Of a stretch of 64,000 bases of DNA, positions 3,401-52,901 are shown piece after piece. The stretch lies in NCBI RefSeq assembly GCF_029227855.1, contig NZ_CP074356.1. One strand, written 5' to 3'. Made by a program: the position numbers and the translations under genes. The notes beneath the pieces were generated by a model that was given only the letters and a program-made list of their open reading frames with translations, did not search any database and had not been told where the DNA came from. The DNA is from Escherichia coli (GTDB taxonomy: Bacteria; Pseudomonadota; Gammaproteobacteria; Enterobacterales; Enterobacteriaceae). The stretch's first letter is position 1. Each line of letters opens with the position of its first letter.

Positions 3401-4155
3401 GTTGTCACCCTGGACCTGGTCGTACATTTAAGAAATTAAATCATTTCAACTTGGTTGTTAACGCAACATGTATTTTGTTAACGCTGCGTTACGATGGAAA
3501 GTATGTCTGCGGAAATATTTTTAATAACTCACCCGCGCGTTGTATTTTTCTTTTTTTGTTCATACCAAAGTATTAAAACCCACGTAAATACGCTGTTATC
3601 TACGCAAAAAAAAATATTTTGTTTTCTTTTAAATCTCCGTTTTCCGCAATCAAAAATCACCAGACAGCCATTCTTCTTGCCCGTCGCTGATTGCTGCGAT
3701 ATGTCTTGCGCACAAGCCGTGACAAACCTCGTCTTTTTGCAGTAAAAAATTGTCCACGGAGGTGTGAAGAAAAAACAACAACGTTTTACATGACGAAAGG
3801 ACTACACCGAAATATTTTTTATATGCATTATTAGTAAGTTAGCACCATTTGTATGATTTTTTAAAATTGTGCAATAAAAACCAAATGTACAACTTTTCTA
3901 TCATTTCTAACTTAACAAAACCTTAAGATTAACATTTTAATATAACGAGTTACATTTAGTTACATGTTTAACACTTGATTTAAGATTTGTAATGGCTAGA
4001 TTGAAATCAGATGTAATCCATTAGTTTTATATTTTACCCATTTAGGGCTGATTTATTACTACACACAGCAGTGCAACATCTGTCAGTACTTCTGGTGCTT
4101 CTATTTTAGAGGCAGCTGTCAGGTGTGCGATCAATAAAAAAAGCGGGGTTTCATC
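3401..4155. promoter_or_regulatory. Divergent csgBAC / csgDEFG intergenic control region (about 755 bp, AT-rich)
   Basis: Long AT-rich spacer between divergent csgB and csgD; known from E. coli to hold sigma-S promoters, multiple transcription-factor sites and the long csgD 5' UTR targeted by sRNAs. Individual sites not mapped here. Confidence 0.7.
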
Positions 4156-4806
<651 letters not shown>

Positions 4807-4810
4807 AGCC

Positions 4811-5200
4811 ATGAAACGTTATTTACGCTGGATTGTGGCGGCAGAATTTCTGTTCGCCGCAGGGAATCTTCACGCCGTTGAGGTAGAAGTCCCGGGATTG
4901 TTAACTGACCATACTGTTTCATCTATTGGCCATGATTTTTACCGAGCCTTTAGTGATAAATGGGAAAGTGACTATACGGGTAACTTAACGATTAATGAAA
5001 GGCCCAGTGCACGATGGGGAAGCTGGATCACTATAACGGTCAATCAGGACGTTATTTTCCAGACTTTTTTATTCCCGTTGAAAAGAGACTTCGAAAAAAC
5101 TGTCGTCTTTGCACTGATTCAAACTGAAGAAGCACTAAATCGTCGCCAGATAAATCAGGCGTTATTAAGTACGGGCGATTTGGCGCATGATGAATTTTAA
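4811..5200 (+). CDS. csgE: Curli secretion specificity factor CsgE
   Basis: 129 aa with signal peptide; gene order csgDEFG. Confidence 0.9.
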
Positions 5201-5224
5201 ATAAAAAATTGTTCGGAGGCTGCA

Positions 5225-5641
5225 ATGCGTGTCAAACATGCAGTAGTTCTACTCATGCTTATTTCGCCTTTAAGTTGGGCTGGAACCATGACTTTCCAGT
5301 TCCGTAATCCAAACTTTGGTGGCAACCCAAATAATGGCGCTTTTTTATTAAATAGCGCCCAGGCACAAAACTCGTATAAAGATCCGAGCTATAACGATGA
5401 CTTTGGTATTGAAACGCCCTCAGCGTTAGATAACTTTACTCAGGCCATCCAGTCACAAATTTTAGGTGGGCTACTGTCGAATATTAATACCGGTAAACCG
5501 GGCCGCATGGTGACCAACGATTATATTGTTGATATTGCTAACCGCGATGGTCAATTGCAGTTGAACGTGACAGATCGTAAAACCGGACAAACCTCGACCA
5601 TCCAGGTTTCGGGTTTACAAAATAACTCAACCGATTTTTAA
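5225..5641 (+). CDS. csgF: Curli assembly component CsgF
   Basis: 138 aa with signal peptide; gene order. Confidence 0.9.
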
Positions 5642-8528: not shown

Positions 8529-9506
<978 letters not shown>

Positions 9507-9700
9507 TTATCGTTATGATCTACAAAAGCCACCAGCATAACAAATCCGTGGTCGGTGGCAAAAAAAGCAGATTTCGCTTATTAAAACTGCATATTGATTG
9601 AAGTTTGAATAAACGCGCGATTTTTTAAAAAAGTTTGTTGACCTCAGGTCATGATTTCCCTAAATTAGCGCCCGTTCCAGCAAGACAGGAACAACAATTT

Positions 9701-9788
9701 GGTGAGGTGTCCGAGTGGCTGAAGGAGCACGCCTGGAAAGTGTGTATACGGCAACGTATCGGGGGTTCGAATCCCCCCCTCACCGCCA
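9701..9788 (+). tRNA. serX: tRNA-Ser (anticodon GGA)
   Basis: 88-nt sequence GGTGAGGTGTCCGAGTGGCTGAAGGAGCACGCCTGGAAAGTGTGTATACGGCAACGTATCGGGGGTTCGAATCCCCCCCTCACCGCCA with long variable arm and CCA end. Confidence 0.93.
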
Positions 9789-9798
9789 TATTTAAAGA

Positions 9799-9830
9799 AG
9801 AGCTCGTACGAAAGTACGAGCTTTTTTTTT
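9799..9830 (+). terminator. Intrinsic terminator after serX
   Basis: Hairpin agctcgtacgaaagtacgagct followed by T9 run. Confidence 0.8.
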
Positions 9831-9893
9831 CGTATATTGCATAGACCGGGGGGATGAGAAGCCCCAGGCGGAGGTCGACAACTAGCGACAGAC

Positions 9894-11261
9894 TCATTCA
9901 TCATCCTTGCGGTTGATAAGAATTTCTGCCTCTTTTACTACCACCTTATTACGCCCGGTCTCTTTCGCCTCGTAAAGTGCGTTATCAGCCAGTTGATAGA
10001 TCTCCTTAGGGTTTAACTCATTTTTCTGCGTTACAACAGCGCCAATACTAATCGTCACTTTTTGTGGTATGGCGTATTCAGGATTATCACCAGTTAAACG
10101 CTCAACATTTTCCCGAATCCTTTCCGCTAAAGCTTTCGCACGTTCAGTATCGATGTCCGTCAGCAAGACGCCAAACTCTTCGCCGCCGACGCGCGCAAAA
10201 AGGTCATCTGGCCGTATGCTTTTCCCAATGATACTCACCACTGTTTTTATCACCTGATCGCCAACCGGATGCCCCCAGGTGTCGTTGACTTTTTTGAAGT
10301 GGTCGATATCCATAATCATGACGCAATAAGGCGTTTTTTTGGCCGATGCTGATTGAACTGTCAGTTCATTAAAAAAATAATTTCTGTTAAATATATTGGT
10401 TAAGGAATCGCGATGTGCAATGTCCTTTGTTACTCGTAGCGCACTGAATATATGGCACATAAATATTACCATAACGGTTAACTTACTGACTACTTCAATA
10501 GTGCGACTAATATACCAAATGGACACGCTATACCTGCTCATAAATAAAAGAGAGACATTGTACAGTACGGCACAAAAAGCAATCACCGTCACTCCATTCC
10601 AGATATCACAGCGTAAACCATTAAAGTATAGATTAACTGAAAGCAAGGTTAACCACATGAAAATCATTATGGTAACATATGATGTTTTCCAAACCACCTG
10701 ATCATTTTCATTGGTTAACTCGGCAATGTGTAAATTGTAGCTCTCATAATGACTAGAAAGTATGTGAGCAACTATCGGCCCCCCAACAACAAAAAACAAA
10801 CTTATGCACAAAGTCATTTTTTTAGAAAATAAATTGCGCTGTTTTGTGTTTTCACTAACTTTATTCACCAATGCCAGAAATATTAATATGCACAAACTCA
10901 TCTGACGAAACAAATAATAGATTGCAATGTCATTTTGAACAACACTGCTTGTCAAACGCCCCTCAATAATTTGCTGAATGATAATGACGGTTTTAACAAA
11001 GTAAATCAAACAACTCAGAAAAGCCAAACTAAGTATACAGTTTGAAAATTGCCTACGGTCATAAATGAAATACAACTGCATAAAAATAAATGCAACAGTA
11101 TCGATAAAAAATAAAGCAATCATTACCATCAGATAGGTTGATCGTGGAACAACTTCCTCAACGCCTGGCTGATTAAACCAACTATTCACCAAAACCAAAG
11201 CAAGCCCAAACAATAAGCTCACTAATACAGTACTACTAATTCTCAAATAGTCTTTTTCCAT
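9894..11261 (-). CDS. dgcT: Membrane-anchored diguanylate cyclase (GGDEF/GGEEF domain)
   Basis: ORF 9894..11384; probable start at MEKDYLRISS (456 aa); N-terminal multi-TM region, C-terminal GGDEF domain with RVGGEEFGVLL; divergent from pgaA (ycdT in K-12). Confidence 0.85.
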   Translation of the reverse strand: MEKDYLRISSTVLVSLLFGLALVLVNSWFNQPGVEEVVPRSTYLMVMIALFFIDTVAFIFMQLYFIYDRRQFSNCILSLAFLSCLIYFVKTVIIIQQIIEGRLTSSVVQNDIAIYYLFRQMSLCILIFLALVNKVSENTKQRNLFSKKMTLCISLFFVVGGPIVAHILSSHYESYNLHIAELTNENDQVVWKTSYVTIMIFMWLTLLSVNLYFNGLRCDIWNGVTVIAFCAVLYNVSLLFMSRYSVSIWYISRTIEVVSKLTVMVIFMCHIFSALRVTKDIAHRDSLTNIFNRNYFFNELTVQSASAKKTPYCVMIMDIDHFKKVNDTWGHPVGDQVIKTVVSIIGKSIRPDDLFARVGGEEFGVLLTDIDTERAKALAERIRENVERLTGDNPEYAIPQKVTISIGAVVTQKNELNPKEIYQLADNALYEAKETGRNKVVVKEAEILINRKDDE

Positions 11262-11850: not shown

Positions 11851-14274
11851 ATGTATTCAAGTAGCAGAAAAAGGTGCCCGAAAACCAAATGGGCTTTGAA
11901 AATTCTTACTGCCGCATTTTTAGCAGCGAGTCCCGCGGCGAAGAGTGCTGCTAATAATGCCTATGATGCATTGATTATCGAAGCTCGCAAGGGAAATACT
12001 CAGCCAGCTTTGTTATGGTTTGCACAAAAATCAGCACTCAGTAATAACCAAATTGCTGACTGGTTACAGATTGCCTTATGGGCCGGGCAAGATAAACAGG
12101 TTATTACCGTTTACAACCGCTACCGTCATCAGCAATTACCAGCGCGTGGTTATGCAGCTGTCGCCGTCGCTTATCGTAACCTGCAACAATGGCAAAACTC
12201 GCTTACACTGTGGCAAAAGGCACTCTCTCTGGAGTCGCAAAATAAGGATTATCAACGGGGACAAATTTTAACCCTGGCAGATGCGGGTCACTATGATTCT
12301 GCGCTGGTTAAACTTAAGCAGCTTAACTCTGGAGCACCGGACAAAGCTAATTTACTCGCAGAAGCCTATATCTATAAACTGGCGGGGCGGCATGAGGATG
12401 AATTACGGGCGATGACAGGGTCATTACCTGAAAATGCCTTAACGCAACAATATCCCACAGAATACGTGCAGGCATTACGGAATAATCAACTTGCTGCCGC
12501 GATTGACGATGCCAATTTAACGCCAGATATTCGCGCTGATATTCATGCCGAACTGGTCAGACTGTCGTTTATGCCTACGCGCAGTGAAAGTGAACGTTAT
12601 GCCATTGCCGATCGCGCCCTCGCCCAATACGCTGCATTAGAAATTCTGTGGCATGATAACCCTGACCGCACTGCCCAGTACCAGCGTATTCAGGTTGATC
12701 ATCTTGGCGCGTTATTAACTCGCGATCGTTATAAAGACGTTATTTCTCACTATCAGCGTTTAAAAAAGACGGGGCAAATTATTCCGCCCTGGGCGCAATA
12801 TTGGGTTGCGTCGGCTTATCTCAAAGAACATCAGCCAAAAAAAGCACAGTCAATAATGACAGAGCTCTTTTATCACAAGGAGACCATTGCCCCGGATTTA
12901 TCCGATGAAGAACTTGCGGATCTCTTTTACAGCCACCTGGAGAGTGAAAATTATCCCGGCGCGCTAACTGTCACCCAACATACCATTAATACTTCGCCGC
13001 CTTTCCTTCGGTTAATGGGCACGCCTACGAGCATCCCGAATGATACCTGGTTACAGGGGCATTCGTTTCTCTCAACCGTAGCTAAATATAGTAATGATCT
13101 TCCTCAGGCTGAAATGACAGCCAGAGAGCTTGCTTATAACGCACCAGGAAATCAGGGACTGCGCATTGATTACGCGAGTGTGTTACAAGCCCGCGGTTGG
13201 CCTCGTGCGGCAGAAAATGAATTAAAAAAAGCAGAAGTGATCGAGCCACGTAATATTAATCTGGAGGTTGAACAAGCCTGGACAGCATTAACGTTACAAG
13301 AATGGCAGCAGGCAGCGGTCTTAACGCACGATGTTGTCGAACGTGAACCGCAAGATCCCGGCGTTGTACGTTTAAAACGTGCGGTTGATGTACATAATCT
13401 TGCAGAGCTTCGTATCGCTGGCTCAACAGGAATTGATGCCGAAGGTCCGGATAGTGGCAAACATGATGTCGACTTAACCACCATCGTTTATTCACCACCG
13501 CTGAATGATAACTGGCGCGGTTTTGCTGGATTCGGTTATGCCGATGGACAATTTAGCGAAGGAAAAGGGATTATTCGCGACTGGCTTGCGGGTGTTGAGT
13601 GGCGGTCACGTAATATCTGGCTTGAGGCGGAGTACACCGAACGCTTTTTCAATCATGAGCATAAACCCGGCGCGCGCCTGTCTGGCTGGTATGATTTTAA
13701 TGATAACTGGCGTATTGGTTCGCAACTGGAACGCCTCTCTCACCGCGTTCCATTACGGGCAATGAAAAATGGTGTTACAGGCAACAGTGCACAGGCTTAT
13801 GTTCGCTGGTATCAAAATGAGCGGCGTAAGTACGGTGTCTCCTGGGCTTTCACTGATTTTTCTGACAGTAATCAGCGTCATGAAGTCTCACTTGAGGGTC
13901 AGGAACGCATCTGGTCTTCACCATATTTGATTGTCGATTTCCTACCCAATCTGTATTACGAACAAAATACAGAACACGACACTCCATACTACAACCCTAT
14001 AAAAACGTTCGATATTGTTCCGGCATTTGAGGCAAGTCATTTGTTATGGCGTAGCTATGAAAATAGCTGGGAGCAAATCTTCAGCGCAGGTGTTGGTGCC
14101 TCCTGGCAAAAACATTATGGCACGGATGTCGTCACCCAACTCGGCTACGGGCAACGCATTAGCTGGAATGACGTGATTGATGCTGGCGCAACGCTACGCT
14201 GGGAAAAACGACCTTATGACGGTGACAGAGAACACAACTTATACGTTGAATTCGATATGACATTCAGATTTTAA
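11851..14274 (+). CDS. pgaA: Poly-beta-1,6-N-acetylglucosamine (PGA) outer-membrane export porin with TPR domain
   Basis: 807 aa; signal peptide; gene order pgaABCD. Confidence 0.93.
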   Translation: MYSSSRKRCPKTKWALKILTAAFLAASPAAKSAANNAYDALIIEARKGNTQPALLWFAQKSALSNNQIADWLQIALWAGQDKQVITVYNRYRHQQLPARGYAAVAVAYRNLQQWQNSLTLWQKALSLESQNKDYQRGQILTLADAGHYDSALVKLKQLNSGAPDKANLLAEAYIYKLAGRHEDELRAMTGSLPENALTQQYPTEYVQALRNNQLAAAIDDANLTPDIRADIHAELVRLSFMPTRSESERYAIADRALAQYAALEILWHDNPDRTAQYQRIQVDHLGALLTRDRYKDVISHYQRLKKTGQIIPPWAQYWVASAYLKEHQPKKAQSIMTELFYHKETIAPDLSDEELADLFYSHLESENYPGALTVTQHTINTSPPFLRLMGTPTSIPNDTWLQGHSFLSTVAKYSNDLPQAEMTARELAYNAPGNQGLRIDYASVLQARGWPRAAENELKKAEVIEPRNINLEVEQAWTALTLQEWQQAAVLTHDVVEREPQDPGVVRLKRAVDVHNLAELRIAGSTGIDAEGPDSGKHDVDLTTIVYSPPLNDNWRGFAGFGYADGQFSEGKGIIRDWLAGVEWRSRNIWLEAEYTERFFNHEHKPGARLSGWYDFNDNWRIGSQLERLSHRVPLRAMKNGVTGNSAQAYVRWYQNERRKYGVSWAFTDFSDSNQRHEVSLEGQERIWSSPYLIVDFLPNLYYEQNTEHDTPYYNPIKTFDIVPAFEASHLLWRSYENSWEQIFSAGVGASWQKHYGTDVVTQLGYGQRISWNDVIDAGATLRWEKRPYDGDREHNLYVEFDMTFRF

Positions 14275-14282
14275 GGATAAAT

Positions 14283-16301
14283 ATGTTACGTAATGGAAAT
14301 AAATATCTCCTGATGCTGGTGAGTATAATTATGCTCACTGCGTGCATTAGCCAGTCAAGAACATCATTTATACCGCCACAGGATCGCGAATCTTTACTCG
14401 CCGAGCAACCGTGGCCGCATAATGGTTTTGTGGCGATTTCATGGCATAACGTTGAAGACGAAGCTGCCGGCCAGCGTTTTATGTCAGTGCGGACATCAGC
14501 ACTGCGTGAACAATTTGCCTGGCTGCGCGAGAACGGTTATCAACCGGTCAGTATTGCTCAAATTCGTGAAGCACATCAAGGAGGAAAGCCGCTACCGGAA
14601 AAAGCAGTAGTGCTAACTTTTGATGACGGCTACCAGAGTTTTTATACCCGCGTCTTCCCAATTCTTCAGGCCTTCCAGTGGCCTGCTGTATGGGCCCCCG
14701 TCGGCAGTTGGGTCGATACGCCAGCGGATGAACAAGTAAAATTTGGCGATGAGATGGTCGATCGAGAATATTTTGCCACGTGGCAACAAGTGCGAGAAGT
14801 TGCGCGTTCCCGGCTCGTTGAGGTCGCTTCTCATACATGGAATTCTCACTACGGTATTCAGGCTAATGCCACCGGCAGCTTATTGCCTGTATATGTAAAT
14901 CGTGCATATTTTACTGACCACGCACGGTATGAAACCGCAGCAGAATACCGGGAAAGAATTCGTCTGGATGCTGTAAAAATGACGGAATACCTGCGTACAA
15001 AGGCTAAGGTAAATCCACACGTTTTTGTTTGGCCTTATGGCGAAGCGAATGGCATAGCGATAGAGGAATTAAAAAAACTCGGTTATGACATGTTCTTCAC
15101 CCTTGAATCAGGTTTGGCAAATGCGTCACAATTGGATTCCATTCCGCGAGTATTAATCGCCAATAATCCCTCATTAAAAGAGTTTGCCCAGCAAATTATT
15201 ACCGTACAGGAAAAATCACCACAACGGATAATGCATATCGATCTTGATTACGTTTATGACGAAAACCGCCAGCAAATGGATCGCAATATTGATGTGCTAA
15301 TTCAGCGGGTGAAAGATATGCAAATATCAACCGTGTATTTGCAGGCATTTGCTGATCCCGATGGTGATGGGCTGGTCAAAGAGGTCTGGTTTCCAAATCG
15401 TTTGCTACCAATGAAAGCAGATATTTTTAGTCGGGTTGCCTGGCAATTACGTACCCGCTCAGGTGTAAACATCTATGCGTGGATGCCGGTATTAAGCTGG
15501 GATTTAGATCCCACATTAACGCGAGTAAAATACTTACCGACTGGGGAGAAAAAAGCACAAATTCATCCTGAACAATATCGCCGTCTCTCTCCTTTCGATG
15601 ACAGAGTCAGAGCACAAGTTGGCATGTTATATGAAGATCTTGCCGGACATGCTGCTTTTGATGGCATATTGTTCCACGATGATGCTTTGCTTTCAGATTA
15701 TGAAGATGCCAGTGCACCGGCTATCACGGCTTATCAGCAAGCAGGCTTTAGCGGGAGTCTGAGCGAAATTCGACAAAACCCGGAGCAATTTAAACAGTGG
15801 ACCCGCTTTAAAAGTCGTGCGTTAACTGACTTCACTTTAGAACTTAGTGCGCGCGTAAAAGCCATTCGCGGTCCACATGTTAAAACTGCACGAAATATTT
15901 TTGCACTTCCGGTAATACAACCTGAAAGTGAAGCCTGGTTTGCACAGAATTATGCTGATTTCCTAAAAAGCTATGACTGGACCGCTATTATGGCTATGCC
16001 TTATATGGAAGGTGTAGCAGAAAAATCGGCTGACCAATGGTTAATACAATTGACCAATCAAATTAAAAACATCCCTCAGGCTAAAGACAAATCTATTTTA
16101 GAATTACAGGCACAAAACTGGCAGAAAAATGGTCAGCATCAGGCTATTTCTTCGCAACAACTCGCTCACTGGATGAGCCTATTACAACTGAATGGAGTGA
16201 AAAACTATGGTTATTATCCCGACAATTTTCTGCATAACCAACCTGAAATAGACGTTATTCGTCCTGAGTTTTCAACAGCCTGGTATCCGAAAAATGATTA
16301 A
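14283..16301 (+). CDS. pgaB: PGA N-deacetylase lipoprotein PgaB
   Basis: 672 aa; lipobox (LTAC); polysaccharide deacetylase-like N-terminal domain. Confidence 0.93.
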
Positions 16302-17619
16302 TCGCATCGTATCGTTTTTTATATTATGTCTGGTGTTATGCATACCCCTATGCGTAGCGTACTTTCACTCTGGTGAACTGATGATGAGGTTCGTTTTCTT
16401 CTGGCCGTTTTTTATGTCCATCATGTGGATTGTTGGCGGCGTCTATTTCTGGGTCTATCGTGAACGCCACTGGCCGTGGGGAGAAAACGCACCAGCTCCC
16501 CAGTTGAAAGATAATCCGTCTATCTCCATTATCATTCCCTGTTTTAATGAGGAGAAAAACGTTGAGGAAACCATACACGCCGCTTTAGCACAGCGTTATG
16601 AGAACATTGAAGTTATTGCCGTAAATGACGGTTCAACAGACAAAACCCGTGCCATCCTGGATCGCATGGCTGCACAAATTCCCCACCTGCGGGTCATTCA
16701 TCTGGCGCAAAACCAGGGGAAAGCCATTGCGCTTAAAACCGGAGCTGCCGCGGCGAAAAGTGAATATCTGGTGTGCATTGATGGCGATGCGTTATTAGAC
16801 CGCGATGCGGCGGCATATATTGTGGAACCGATGTTGTACAACCCGCGTGTGGGTGCCGTAACCGGTAATCCTCGTATTCGAACACGTTCTACCCTGGTGG
16901 GTAAAATTCAGGTTGGCGAGTATTCCTCAATTATTGGTTTGATCAAGCGAACCCAGCGTATCTATGGAAACGTATTTACCGTTTCCGGTGTTATTGCCGC
17001 ATTTCGTCGCAGCGCCCTGGCAGAAGTGGGTTACTGGAGTGACGATATGATCACCGAAGATATTGATATTAGCTGGAAGCTGCAGTTGAATCAGTGGGCG
17101 ATTTTTTACGAGCCACGGGCGCTGTGCTGGATATTAATGCCTGAAACGTTAAAAGGGCTGTGGAAACAGCGCCTGCGCTGGGCTCAGGGCGGTGCAGAAG
17201 TATTCCTCAAAAATATGACAAGGTTGTGGCGCAAAGAAAACTTTCGAATGTGGCCGCTGTTTTTTGAATACTGCCTGACGACAATATGGGCCTTCACTTG
17301 CCTGGTCGGTTTCATTATTTACGCAGTCCAACTTGCCGGTGTACCGTTAAATATTGAATTGACACATATCGCTGCGACACATACTGCCGGAATATTATTG
17401 TGTACGTTATGTTTACTGCAATTTATTGTCAGCCTGATGATCGAGAATCGCTATGAGCATAATCTGACTTCATCGCTTTTCTGGATTATTTGGTTCCCGG
17501 TTATTTTCTGGATGCTGAGTCTGGCAACGACATTGGTATCATTTACACGAGTCATGTTGATGCCTAAAAAGCAACGCGCCCGTTGGGTAAGTCCCGATCG
17601 CGGGATTCTGAGAGGTTAA
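16294..17619 (+). CDS. pgaC: PGA synthase, family-2 glycosyltransferase PgaC
   Basis: 441 aa; GT2 motifs ([16 protein letters not shown]). Confidence 0.93.
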
Positions 17620-17620
17620 T

Positions 17621-18034
17621 ATGAACAATTTAATTATTACGACCCGACAATCGCCAGTACGTTTAATGGTTGATTATGTTGCCACAACCATCTTATGGAC
17701 ATTATTTGCTTTGTTCATATTCTTATTCGCCATGGATCTGCTGACGGGTTATTACTGGCAAAGCGAGGCCAGAAGCCGACTTCAGTTCTATTTTTTGCTG
17801 GCAGTGGCGAATGCCGTCGTGTTAATTGTCTGGGCGCTGTACAATAAGCTACGTTTTCAAAAACAGCAGCATCATGCAGCCTACCAATATACGCCGCAAG
17901 AATATGCTGAGAGCTTAGCAATACCTGATGAGCTCTATCAGCAACTACAAAAAAGCCACAGGATGAGCGTACACTTCACCAGGCAGGGGCAAATAAAAAT
18001 GGTGGTTTCAGAAAAAGCGCTAGTCCGGGCGTAA
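17621..18034 (+). CDS. pgaD: PGA synthesis accessory membrane protein PgaD
   Basis: 137 aa, two TM segments; immediately follows pgaC. Confidence 0.9.
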
Positions 18035-18083: not shown

Positions 18084-19007
18084 TTAACTGTATGCATGTA
18101 GCGTACGTTGGCAAAGTGCCGAACGTACGCAATCCTCTTTACCGAATCGGACGATCCCGACCATTTCATCTTCTTCGAAACGTTCCAGCGCGTCACTTAA
18201 TCCGGAGCGCACGCCGCGAGGCAAATCGCATTGCGTGATATCACCGTTGACGATAACCGTCACGTTCTCCCCGAGGCGGGTTAAAAACATTTTCATTTGC
18301 GCGGCAGTCACATTCTGCGCCTCGTCAAGAATGACGACTGCATTTTCAAAGGTACGTCCACGCATATAGGCGAACGGCGCAATTTCCACCTTCCCTATTT
18401 CCGGTCGCAGGCAGTACTGCATAAAGGAAGCCCCTAAGCGCCGGACCAGCACGTCGTAGACCGGACGAAAATAGGGAGCAAACTTTTCTGCGATATCTCC
18501 AGGTAAGAAGCCAAGATCTTCATCGGCTTGCAGAACTGGACGGGTGACGATAATCCTGTCGACATCCTTATGTATCAGGGCCTCTGCCGCTTTTGCTGCG
18601 CTGATCCAGGTTTTTCCGCACCCGGCTTCGCCCGTGGCGAATATCAGCTGCTTACTCTCAATAGCCTTCAGATAGTGCAATTGCGCTTCATTTCGCGCGA
18701 GGATGGGCGAGGTATCGCGACTGTCGCGGGCCATACCAATGGCTTCTACGCCGCTCATCTGCACAAGCGAGGTGACCGATTCTTCTTCACGCTGCTTATG
18801 GCTGCGCGAATCCCGTCTCAGCACACGTTTTGCCTCGCGACGAGCTTTGATCACTGCTTTTTGTCTTCCCATGGAGAGCACCTTGAGTTGTTTGTATTCA
18901 TCACACGCGCCGTTGGCAGCGCGATTATGCGCACGAACATCAGAGGGTTGGCTTCCTTGTAAGCCATAGTTTGCTTTTGGATAAAATGCCGAAAAACGGC
19001 TACGCAC
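18084..19007 (-). CDS. phoH: PhoH, phosphate-starvation-inducible ATPase (start codon uncertain; see findings)
   Basis: Walker A GEAGCGKT; longest in-frame ORF starts at GTG 19007 (307 aa); internal ATG gives MGRQKAVIKARR (262-aa form). Confidence 0.85.
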   Translation of the reverse strand: MRSRFSAFYPKANYGLQGSQPSDVRAHNRAANGACDEYKQLKVLSMGRQKAVIKARREAKRVLRRDSRSHKQREEESVTSLVQMSGVEAIGMARDSRDTSPILARNEAQLHYLKAIESKQLIFATGEAGCGKTWISAAKAAEALIHKDVDRIIVTRPVLQADEDLGFLPGDIAEKFAPYFRPVYDVLVRRLGASFMQYCLRPEIGKVEIAPFAYMRGRTFENAVVILDEAQNVTAAQMKMFLTRLGENVTVIVNGDITQCDLPRGVRSGLSDALERFEEDEMVGIVRFGKEDCVRSALCQRTLHAYS

Positions 19008-52230: not shown

Positions 52231-52403
52231 GCTCAGTGCGTATTTGCAGCGCGACGTTATCAAAGGTGATCATCGTCGATTTACAAAAAATACACTTTGC
52301 CCCTAAAGGATTTCGCTCCGTCACATCGAATGCCGATGTGCGGTACTGTGAACCATGACAACATGGACAGCGGAAATGGAGATGTTGAGTAATAACGGCA
52401 ACC

Positions 52404-52616
52404 TTAGAGCGTAACAACGTTCGCTGCCGCGGGACCACGTTGCCCCTGCTCAATAGAAAATTCAACTTTCTGATTTTCGTTCAGCGTGCGGAATTCATTG
52501 CTCTGGATGGCGGTGAAATGGACGAAAACGTCTTTGCTGCCATCATCAGGAGTGATAAAGCCAAAACCTTTATCTGCGTTAAACCATTTTACTAAACCAG
52601 TCATTTTATTAGACAT
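52404..52616 (-). CDS. cspG: Cold-shock protein CspG
   Basis: 70 aa; [21 protein letters not shown] cold-shock domain. Confidence 0.93.
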
Positions 52617-52901
52617 ATTTTACTTCCTTCATTTTGGGCCTTTCGGCAAACAGGGCTTTAATACAGAAACTACTTAGTGTTCAGGAGAGAGACTCAAAAG
52701 AAGGGGATAATGCCTGATAATGAGAACTGCTTTATTAAACTACTTTGTATGCTGTCTGTCTTTCAAACCGACGCAGCTATTAACGCATGATAATTGAGAT
52801 TAAGCAAATTTTATTTTAGCCGTCCGGCGGTCTTAAATATCGCTGGCTTTATTTTATTAACCCCGTATAGTGCAGCGCAGTATTTTCAGTAAGGAATTTG
52901 T

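Follow-up and report, generated by a model that had tools for sequence, protein, structure and literature searches.

In the window, as we call the whole 64-kb stretch of Escherichia coli DNA analyzed here, serX lies immediately beside the diguanylate cyclase gene dgcT (ycdT). The serX gene, encoding tRNA-Ser(GGA), occupies positions 9701 to 9788 of the positive strand (ARAGORN; Rfam tRNA, 53.8 bits). It is preceded by ghrA, the gene for glyoxylate/hydroxypyruvate reductase A, at 9467 to 8529 on the negative strand, identified from the list of open reading frames (ORFs), by tblastn (100% over 312 amino acids) and from the PGAP annotation of an identical genome. On the other side of serX, dgcT (9894 to 11261, negative strand) encodes a MASE4-GGDEF diguanylate cyclase of 455 amino acids according to its ORF and translation and to the same PGAP annotation; its homologues have precomputed matches to Pfam families PF17158 and PF00990. 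The ORF and its translation place the dgcT stop codon at 9894 to 9896 on the negative strand, and the gap between the end of serX and this codon is exactly 9789 to 9893, or 105 bp. Next come pgaABCD (11851 to 18034, positive strand; annotation carried over from the 100%-identical genome JNEC-KY178) and phoH (18084 to 18872, negative strand; tblastn, 99%), the conserved far edge of the variable interval. In the PGAP annotation of JNEC-KY178, serX and dgcT are likewise 105 bp apart. An earlier reading of this DNA, made from the sequence only, had placed serX directly beside ycdT, and the tRNA predictions (ARAGORN and Rfam), the ORF and the annotation of the identical genome all agree with it.

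The sequence-only reading had also put an IS3 element, ymdE and ycdU between serX and ycdT of K-12. This is the gene order of MG1655: dgcT, IS3D (insE4/insF4), the ymdE pseudogene, ycdU, serX and ghrA, with a distance of 3,330 bp between dgcT and serX. The segment is missing from the window, as had been claimed. Tblastn and blastn searches of all 64 kb turned up no gene for YcdU, YmdE, an EAL protein, an integrase or the transposase of IS3, and between serX and dgcT of the window the searches for ycdU, ymdE, the EAL gene and IS3 gave no match but a repeat unit. Thus, serX is only 105 bp from dgcT because the islands that occupy the site in other strains are all missing here.

An intrinsic terminator of serX was recognized in the sequence of the spacer at 9801 to 9831 on the positive strand. 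It consists of a perfect 9-bp hairpin (9801 to 9822) followed by a run of nine thymines (T9, 9823 to 9831), and the combination of a GC-rich hairpin with a T run marks it as a putative rho-independent terminator. The predicted fold of the spacer RNA has an energy of -36.6 kcal/mol, with a z score of -5.05 on the positive strand and -3.7 on the negative strand. The hairpin at 9801 to 9831 probably also stops the convergent dgcT transcript: the stem is palindromic, dgcT is convergent, and a pattern scan placed the hairpin on the negative strand, so the terminator probably serves both genes. The scan reported the hairpin on the negative strand only, with the tail CTTCTTTAAA, despite the stronger T9 on the positive strand; this single-strand listing looks like an effect of the way in which the scan tool handles overlapping sites. 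The spacer had been described as mostly serX terminator, which is not the case. The terminator takes up about 31 of the 105 bp (approximately 30%), and the spacer is mostly repeat unit.

This unit, found by blastn against K-12 at 9770 to 9891 on the positive strand, corresponds to 122 of the 181 bp of the repeat that lies downstream of serX and is thus a single, truncated copy. The last 19 nucleotides of the tRNA belong to it, as do the terminator and another 60 bases (9832 to 9891), and the 41 nucleotides from 9851 to 9891 are the 5' part only of an RtT-type element. In K-12, Tandem Repeats Finder (TRF) described an array downstream of serX with a period of 181, 3.4 copies and 99% matches, and the window unit aligned by blastn with three full copies and one partial copy. 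The Rfam RtT model (RF00391; gathering score, 45) matched two of the K-12 units at 46.3 bits and a third at 36.1 bits. No RtT match was obtained between 9600 and 10000 of the window even in a permissive search (E ≤ 1), and the window fragment is thus not recognized as RtT. Other sub-threshold Rfam matches in the window (among them sX4, MicC and Thr_leader) were rejected as chance matches driven by the tRNA and the terminator.

The K-12 serX units resemble the repeats of tyrT-tyrV (RtT, RF00391; rttR) in that they begin with a tRNA 3' end, are arranged in tandem and match the RtT model. The serX and tyrT units have in common the motif GGATGAGAAGC..CGACC..GGTTCGAC, and their likeness is confined to about 35 nucleotides at 83% identity. 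The window differs from this system in holding a 5' fragment of one unit only, below RtT scoring. The architecture of the tyrT-tyrV locus, with 178-bp tandem repeats downstream of the tRNA genes, was reportedly described by Egan and Landy in 1978, Rossi et al. in 1981, and Bosl and Kersten in 1991. A full-text literature search on RtT repeats of serX and tyrT returned unrelated "Rtt" papers only.

The motif formed by the serX 3' end and the terminator occurs once in the window, twice in ET5, three times in CFSAN061772, strain 789 and the divergent Escherichia strain SCPM-O-B-8794 (L013), and four times in K-12. The 181-bp unit is variable in copy number, with one to four copies of this motif, presumably through unequal recombination, and the window retains a single, truncated unit. 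In L013 (9386 to 9768), a 180-bp unit is accompanied by a short unit of 106 bp. The junction of the short unit reads GGGGTTCGAATCCCCCCC, as if the T-arm of the tRNA had recombined with a similar RtT motif, GGGGTTCGAC; this hints at a tRNA-derived origin of the RtT unit.

The boundaries of the variable segment do not coincide with the ends of the two genes. The left boundary falls within the repeat unit, 62 bp beyond the tRNA: genomes with the island cease to match the window at 9850/9851. On the right, homology to K-12 resumes in blastn only at 9940, within dgcT. The variable 3' end of dgcT (9894 to 9939, negative strand) is the right-hand breakpoint of an OI-47-type island, as seen from blastn, the translations and the tails of homologues. 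Over the last 13 DgcT codons, the tail up to the stop codon reads KEAEILINRKDDE in the window and RDVVNFCESP in the K-12 type (K-12-type locus L001, 9199 to 9235). Taken slightly farther upstream, DgcT ends in NKVVVKEAEILINRKDDE in the window and in NKVVVRDVVNFCESP in K-12 and in the strains with the full island; this island-associated tail is not the one that the window carries. The last 13 codons differ completely between the two types because the island breakpoint falls inside dgcT. The 48 bp unique to the window (9892 to 9939) had no match in K-12, in the full island or in the rest of the window. The possibility that this stretch is a leftover scar of the island was ruled out, given that none of its 48 bp matches the island.

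The island itself is intact in O157:H7 MB41-1 and in Res13-Sevr-PER07-33, where the whole, ycdU included, is about 33 kb long (46% GC). After ycdU, it encodes an ACP S-malonyltransferase (the full-length ymdE product), a LolA-like protein, an ABC transporter and two ketosynthases, followed by an ACP, FabZ, an SDR and AcpS, a ShlB/FHA two-partner secretion pair and a fimbrial operon. At the dgcT end, a winged-helix regulator (GrvA-like) is followed by an EAL protein encoded directly before dgcT. The annotation of the intact island lists no integrase, and neither end repeats nor a recombinase of the OI-47-type island was found. The intact island corresponds to the published O-island 47 of E. coli O157:H7 EDL933, which spans 31,727 bp from z1528 to z1556 (PMC8565820). 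An aryl-polyene cluster, considered as the identity of the ycdU-linked genes, was dropped, the gene content and the published size being those of OI-47.

The K-12 IS3D element is flanked by CAC on one side and AAA on the other and thus lacks a 3-bp target duplication. When located in the intact island, its two flanks are separated by 31,742 bp: one falls within ymdE, and the other lies 10 bp beyond the stop codon of dgcT. Because of this spacing, ycdU and the truncated ymdE (ymdE') of K-12 are, as judged from the sequences, the stub of an OI-47-type island left by an IS3-associated deletion, and the K-12 content is accessory, as had been supposed. OI-47 and the K-12 segment IS3D-ymdE'-ycdU sit in the same serX-dgcT interval, with ycdU and ymdE' forming the left edge of the island. 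In the window, by contrast, the island is wholly missing, and dgcT retains the tail that the island replaced elsewhere.

We then considered which of the two states is ancestral. In a survey of homologues, KEAEILINRKDDE-like tails, with substitutions, were found in DgcT alleles that are 97, 89, 87, 86 and 76 to 77% identical to that of the window. The RDVVNFCESP tail was invariant and was found only in alleles with 89 to 95% identity, save for one aberrant sequence of 76% identity (P0032), which is probably frameshifted. The truncated unit also abuts the dgcT stop in the divergent Escherichia strain L013, whose DgcT is 77% identical, and in a lineage with the 89% allele (L094; gene order pgaBA-dgcT-serX-ghrA), in which all of the region from 9300 to 10100 aligns with the window at 93%. 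Three Salmonella-labelled contigs (L095 to L097, approximately 4001 to 5540) contain an 86%-identical dgcT with pgaA and pgaB beside genes for TraG_N, TraI, TraX and Rep3; pgaCD fall outside the loci read. Homology to the window spans dgcT, the repeat fragment and the T run in these contigs and ends inside the serX terminator hairpin. Judging by its Tra and Rep neighbors, this pga-dgcT copy is in a plasmid or ICE context. PLSDB contained no close plasmid match to the variant (the best was 88 to 89% identical), and the long PLSDB matches were all in very large "plasmid" records (160 kb to 4.8 Mb) that look like chromosomal fragments.

Four diverged dgcT lineages, the one with the Tra/Rep-flanked copy among them, have thus kept the truncated fragment in fusion with the dgcT stop. 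One could suppose that this RtT/tRNA-like fragment is the functional end of a mobile pga-dgcT cassette, serving either as a recombination handle that targets serX-downstream repeats or as a 3'-UTR/terminator module. We consider such a role unlikely; if it were true, the tail swap brought about by OI-47 would alter DgcT activity and the control of PGA and biofilm in K-12-type strains.

Since the window-type tail and junction recur in deeply diverged dgcT alleles, parsimony suggests that the state seen in the window is ancestral and that the DgcT tail of K-12 is derived. This polarity comes from parsimony over diverged alleles, not from a species tree, and recombination could have spread either junction. 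The converse history, in which the window lineage once had a K-12- or OI-47-like segment and deleted it, making the adjacency of serX and dgcT derived, appears very improbable. Deletion or new end-joining might well give a unit truncated at 122 of 181 bp and a dgcT tail unlike that of K-12, and O157 deletions around serX are on record (PMC3064760), but alleles of only 76 to 89% identity, and the Tra/Rep-flanked copy as well, have a unit truncated at this very point and a tail homologous to that of the window. In addition, neither K-12 nor the full island contains a counterpart of the 48-bp tail. Moreover, it is the K-12 tail that is invariant and, with the exception of the one aberrant sequence, exclusive to close alleles, whereas the deep dgcT lineages appear to carry the window-type tail.

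A second site of insertion lies within serX. The last 14 bp of the gene, CCCCCTCACCGCCA (9775 to 9788, positive strand), are the attB core of P4-like integrase islands and occur once in the 64 kb. On the other strand, this core is identical to TGGCGGTGAGGGGG, the published direct repeat of OI-43/48 and SRL-PAI (PMC3064760). The serX islands in the literature include OI-48/SpLE1, SRL-PAI and PAI-CFT073/UTI89-serX, and OI-43/48 and SRL-PAI excise through site-specific recombination (PMC3064760; PMC7545054). A tyrosine-integrase island ending in a repeat of the 14-bp core was found between serX and the next element in LTC201, O157 MB41-1, strain 789 and UTI89. In the first three strains, where the island has a second copy of the core at its far end, the next element is, respectively, window-type dgcT, the full OI-47 or the IS3 stub; UTI89 has the window arrangement plus the 62-kb PAI-UTI89-serX. 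The integrase gene of the serX islands was seen at the end with the displaced partial serX, on the dgcT/ycdU side (L003, 6638 to 8014; L007, 4563 to 5939; L098, 5138 to 6340).

In its tRNA gene and its 14-bp core, the window agrees with the family of SRL-PAI, OI-43/48 (TAI, SpLE1) and PAI-UTI89-serX. It differs from this family in having a single core and neither island nor integrase, and in this it is like the intact serX of O157:NM 493/89 (PMC3064760). Neither a second core, by counting, nor an island integrase, by tblastn with the integrase, was present in the 64 kb. The tRNA-Ser(GGA) gene is intact, ends in the core and has no displaced copy. The serX attB of the window is thus empty, because the core is single copy and there is no integrase.

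The K-12 segment could be thought of as another such tRNA-targeted island, one that used the att core of serX and whose att scars would be the repeated 3' ends of the gene; the last 19 nucleotides of serX do occur in four copies downstream of the gene in K-12. However, these copies recur at intervals of exactly 181 bp and belong to a tandem array, 99% identical, with matches to the RtT family, and they do not flank ycdU-ymdE-IS3. The boundaries of the segment, 62 bp past the tRNA on the left and within dgcT on the right, are not those of an insertion at the core, the intact island is annotated without an integrase, and in O157 and strain 789 the integrase islands enter separately, on the serX side of ycdU. 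An origin of the K-12 segment by integration at the core is therefore extremely unlikely. The search for att-like repeats of the serX 3' end around the K-12 insert, proposed in the sequence-only reading, turned up tandem RtT-type units rather than flanks; the true att duplications, those of the 14-bp core, flank a different class of island, the integrase islands. The serX-proximal site is indeed unoccupied in the window, as that reading stated, but the K-12 segment is not its occupant, as it sits off the att core and has no integrase.

To see how common each arrangement is, we used 5,426 complete E. coli genomes, with counts based on megablast coverage thresholds and places no more than approximately 1 kb apart joined. 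The comparison of the serX-ycdT junction across E. coli, which had been suggested as a check, separated a window-type unit/dgcT junction (1,436 genomes) from a K-12-type dgcT tail (2,753 genomes). The window-type junction was contiguous with serX in 1,157 genomes, at 95.8 to 100% identity, and the other 279 or so had something inserted at serX; the window arrangement is thus found in about 21 to 26% of E. coli genomes. Among genomes with the K-12-type tail, 2,298 had an identical IS3/dgcT junction and 411 had EAL-dgcT, the intact right end of the island. One IS3-associated 31.7-kb deletion is accordingly common to approximately 42% of sequenced E. coli genomes. The ycdU gene was present in 2,603 genomes. 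Finally, 1,044 genomes, such as those of strains 042 and ET5, lacked dgcT and pgaABCD and had a DUF2726 gene between serX and phoH. The three main classes add up to 5,233 genomes, with 193 (3.6%) in none of them.

An assembly artefact, be it a collapse of 181-bp repeats or a mis-join at a repeated tRNA (the serW/serX twins), is extremely unlikely: many drafts of related species do break within 400 bp after serX, but a complete genome matches the window at 100% identity through the junction, the contiguous junction is present in 1,157 complete genomes, and a collapse of repeats could not make the alternative dgcT tail. As for the drafts, 10 of 80 assemblies (L012, L020, L021, L038, L046, L047, L052, L053, L056 and L077) end less than 400 bp beyond serX, which suggests that repeats near serX (the serW twin, units or islands) routinely break short-read assemblies.

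Outside E. coli, the locus was followed in a GhrA-anchored survey of 80 Enterobacteriaceae species, with one genome per species. In 74 of the 80, serX adjoins ghrA. Between serX and phoH there are as few as 195 bp in some species and more than 10 kb in others, and the cargo differs by species; together with the published islands, this range agrees with the earlier description of serX as a variable insertion hotspot. The shortest distance, with phoH directly beside serX (195 bp), belongs to several species of Citrobacter and to a single lineage of Escherichia, and E. albertii has the DUF2726 state. The pgaABCD-dgcT cassette between serX and phoH, an alternative to the DUF2726 cassette, has a GC content of 43.7% as opposed to 50.4% for the window. 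In Escherichia whittamii (L015, 23 to 9015), a type I-F CRISPR-Cas system (Csy1-4) and a chaperone-usher fimbrial operon lie beside serX.

We conclude that, very probably, the hotspot is layered with two separate insertion sites and the 105-bp spacer shows their ancestral condition, in which neither is occupied. The first site is the 14-bp serX core (9775 to 9788), at which P4-like tyrosine integrases would insert islands of 60 to 110 kb and duplicate the core. The second lies 62 to 150 bp farther on, where the truncated RtT-type unit meets the 3' end of dgcT, and is taken in other lineages by the integrase-less island of approximately 33 kb (OI-47 in O157). The arrival of OI-47 would not have been a clean insertion, as it would have replaced about 89 bp of the target, including the last 13 dgcT codons. 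In the K-12-type lineage, a later IS3-associated deletion of 31,742 bp then left ycdU, a C-terminal fragment of ymdE and IS3D. The layers are thus the cassette (pga-dgcT or DUF2726), then OI-47, then the integrase islands, in addition to changes in the copy number of the repeat unit, and the window has only the first of them, the cassette.

An empty serX site beside dgcT is a common, ordinary and already-known kind of strain difference, since both the serX hotspot and the presence of OI-47 in O157 as opposed to K-12 are established. On its own, the finding is of little weight: it shows that in this strain an island hotspot that is already well documented stands empty. For annotation, it means that K-12 should not be taken as the reference state, with ycdU, ymdE and IS3 being a decayed remnant of OI-47 and the DgcT C-terminus derived. 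The by-products of the analysis are the swap of the 13-codon DgcT tail, the shared IS3 deletion, the variable RtT-type units and the pga-dgcT copy beside Tra and Rep genes. They may be of interest for the regulation of c-di-GMP and PGA or for tRNA-linked repeats, and none of them is surprising.

Several minor observations were made along the way. In the K-12-type strain Res13-Lact-ER02-39, pgaA is interrupted by IS1 (L005, 14222 to 17422), and pgaB of strain 789 has an internal stop (L008, 13289 onward); decay of the pga operon is thus under way in some lineages. Within the window, Rfam placed Ysr251 (Yersinia sRNA 251, annotated as antisense) at 18089 to 18282 on the positive strand with 192.8 bits, over the 3' end of phoH and on the strand opposite to it. 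Other window RNAs at the gathering score were STnc490 (2270 to 2393), ES056 (4009 to 4100), naRNA4 (41589 to 41667), the cspA thermoregulator (52350 to 52772) and a second tRNA-Ser, with the anticodon TGA (63317 to 63404).
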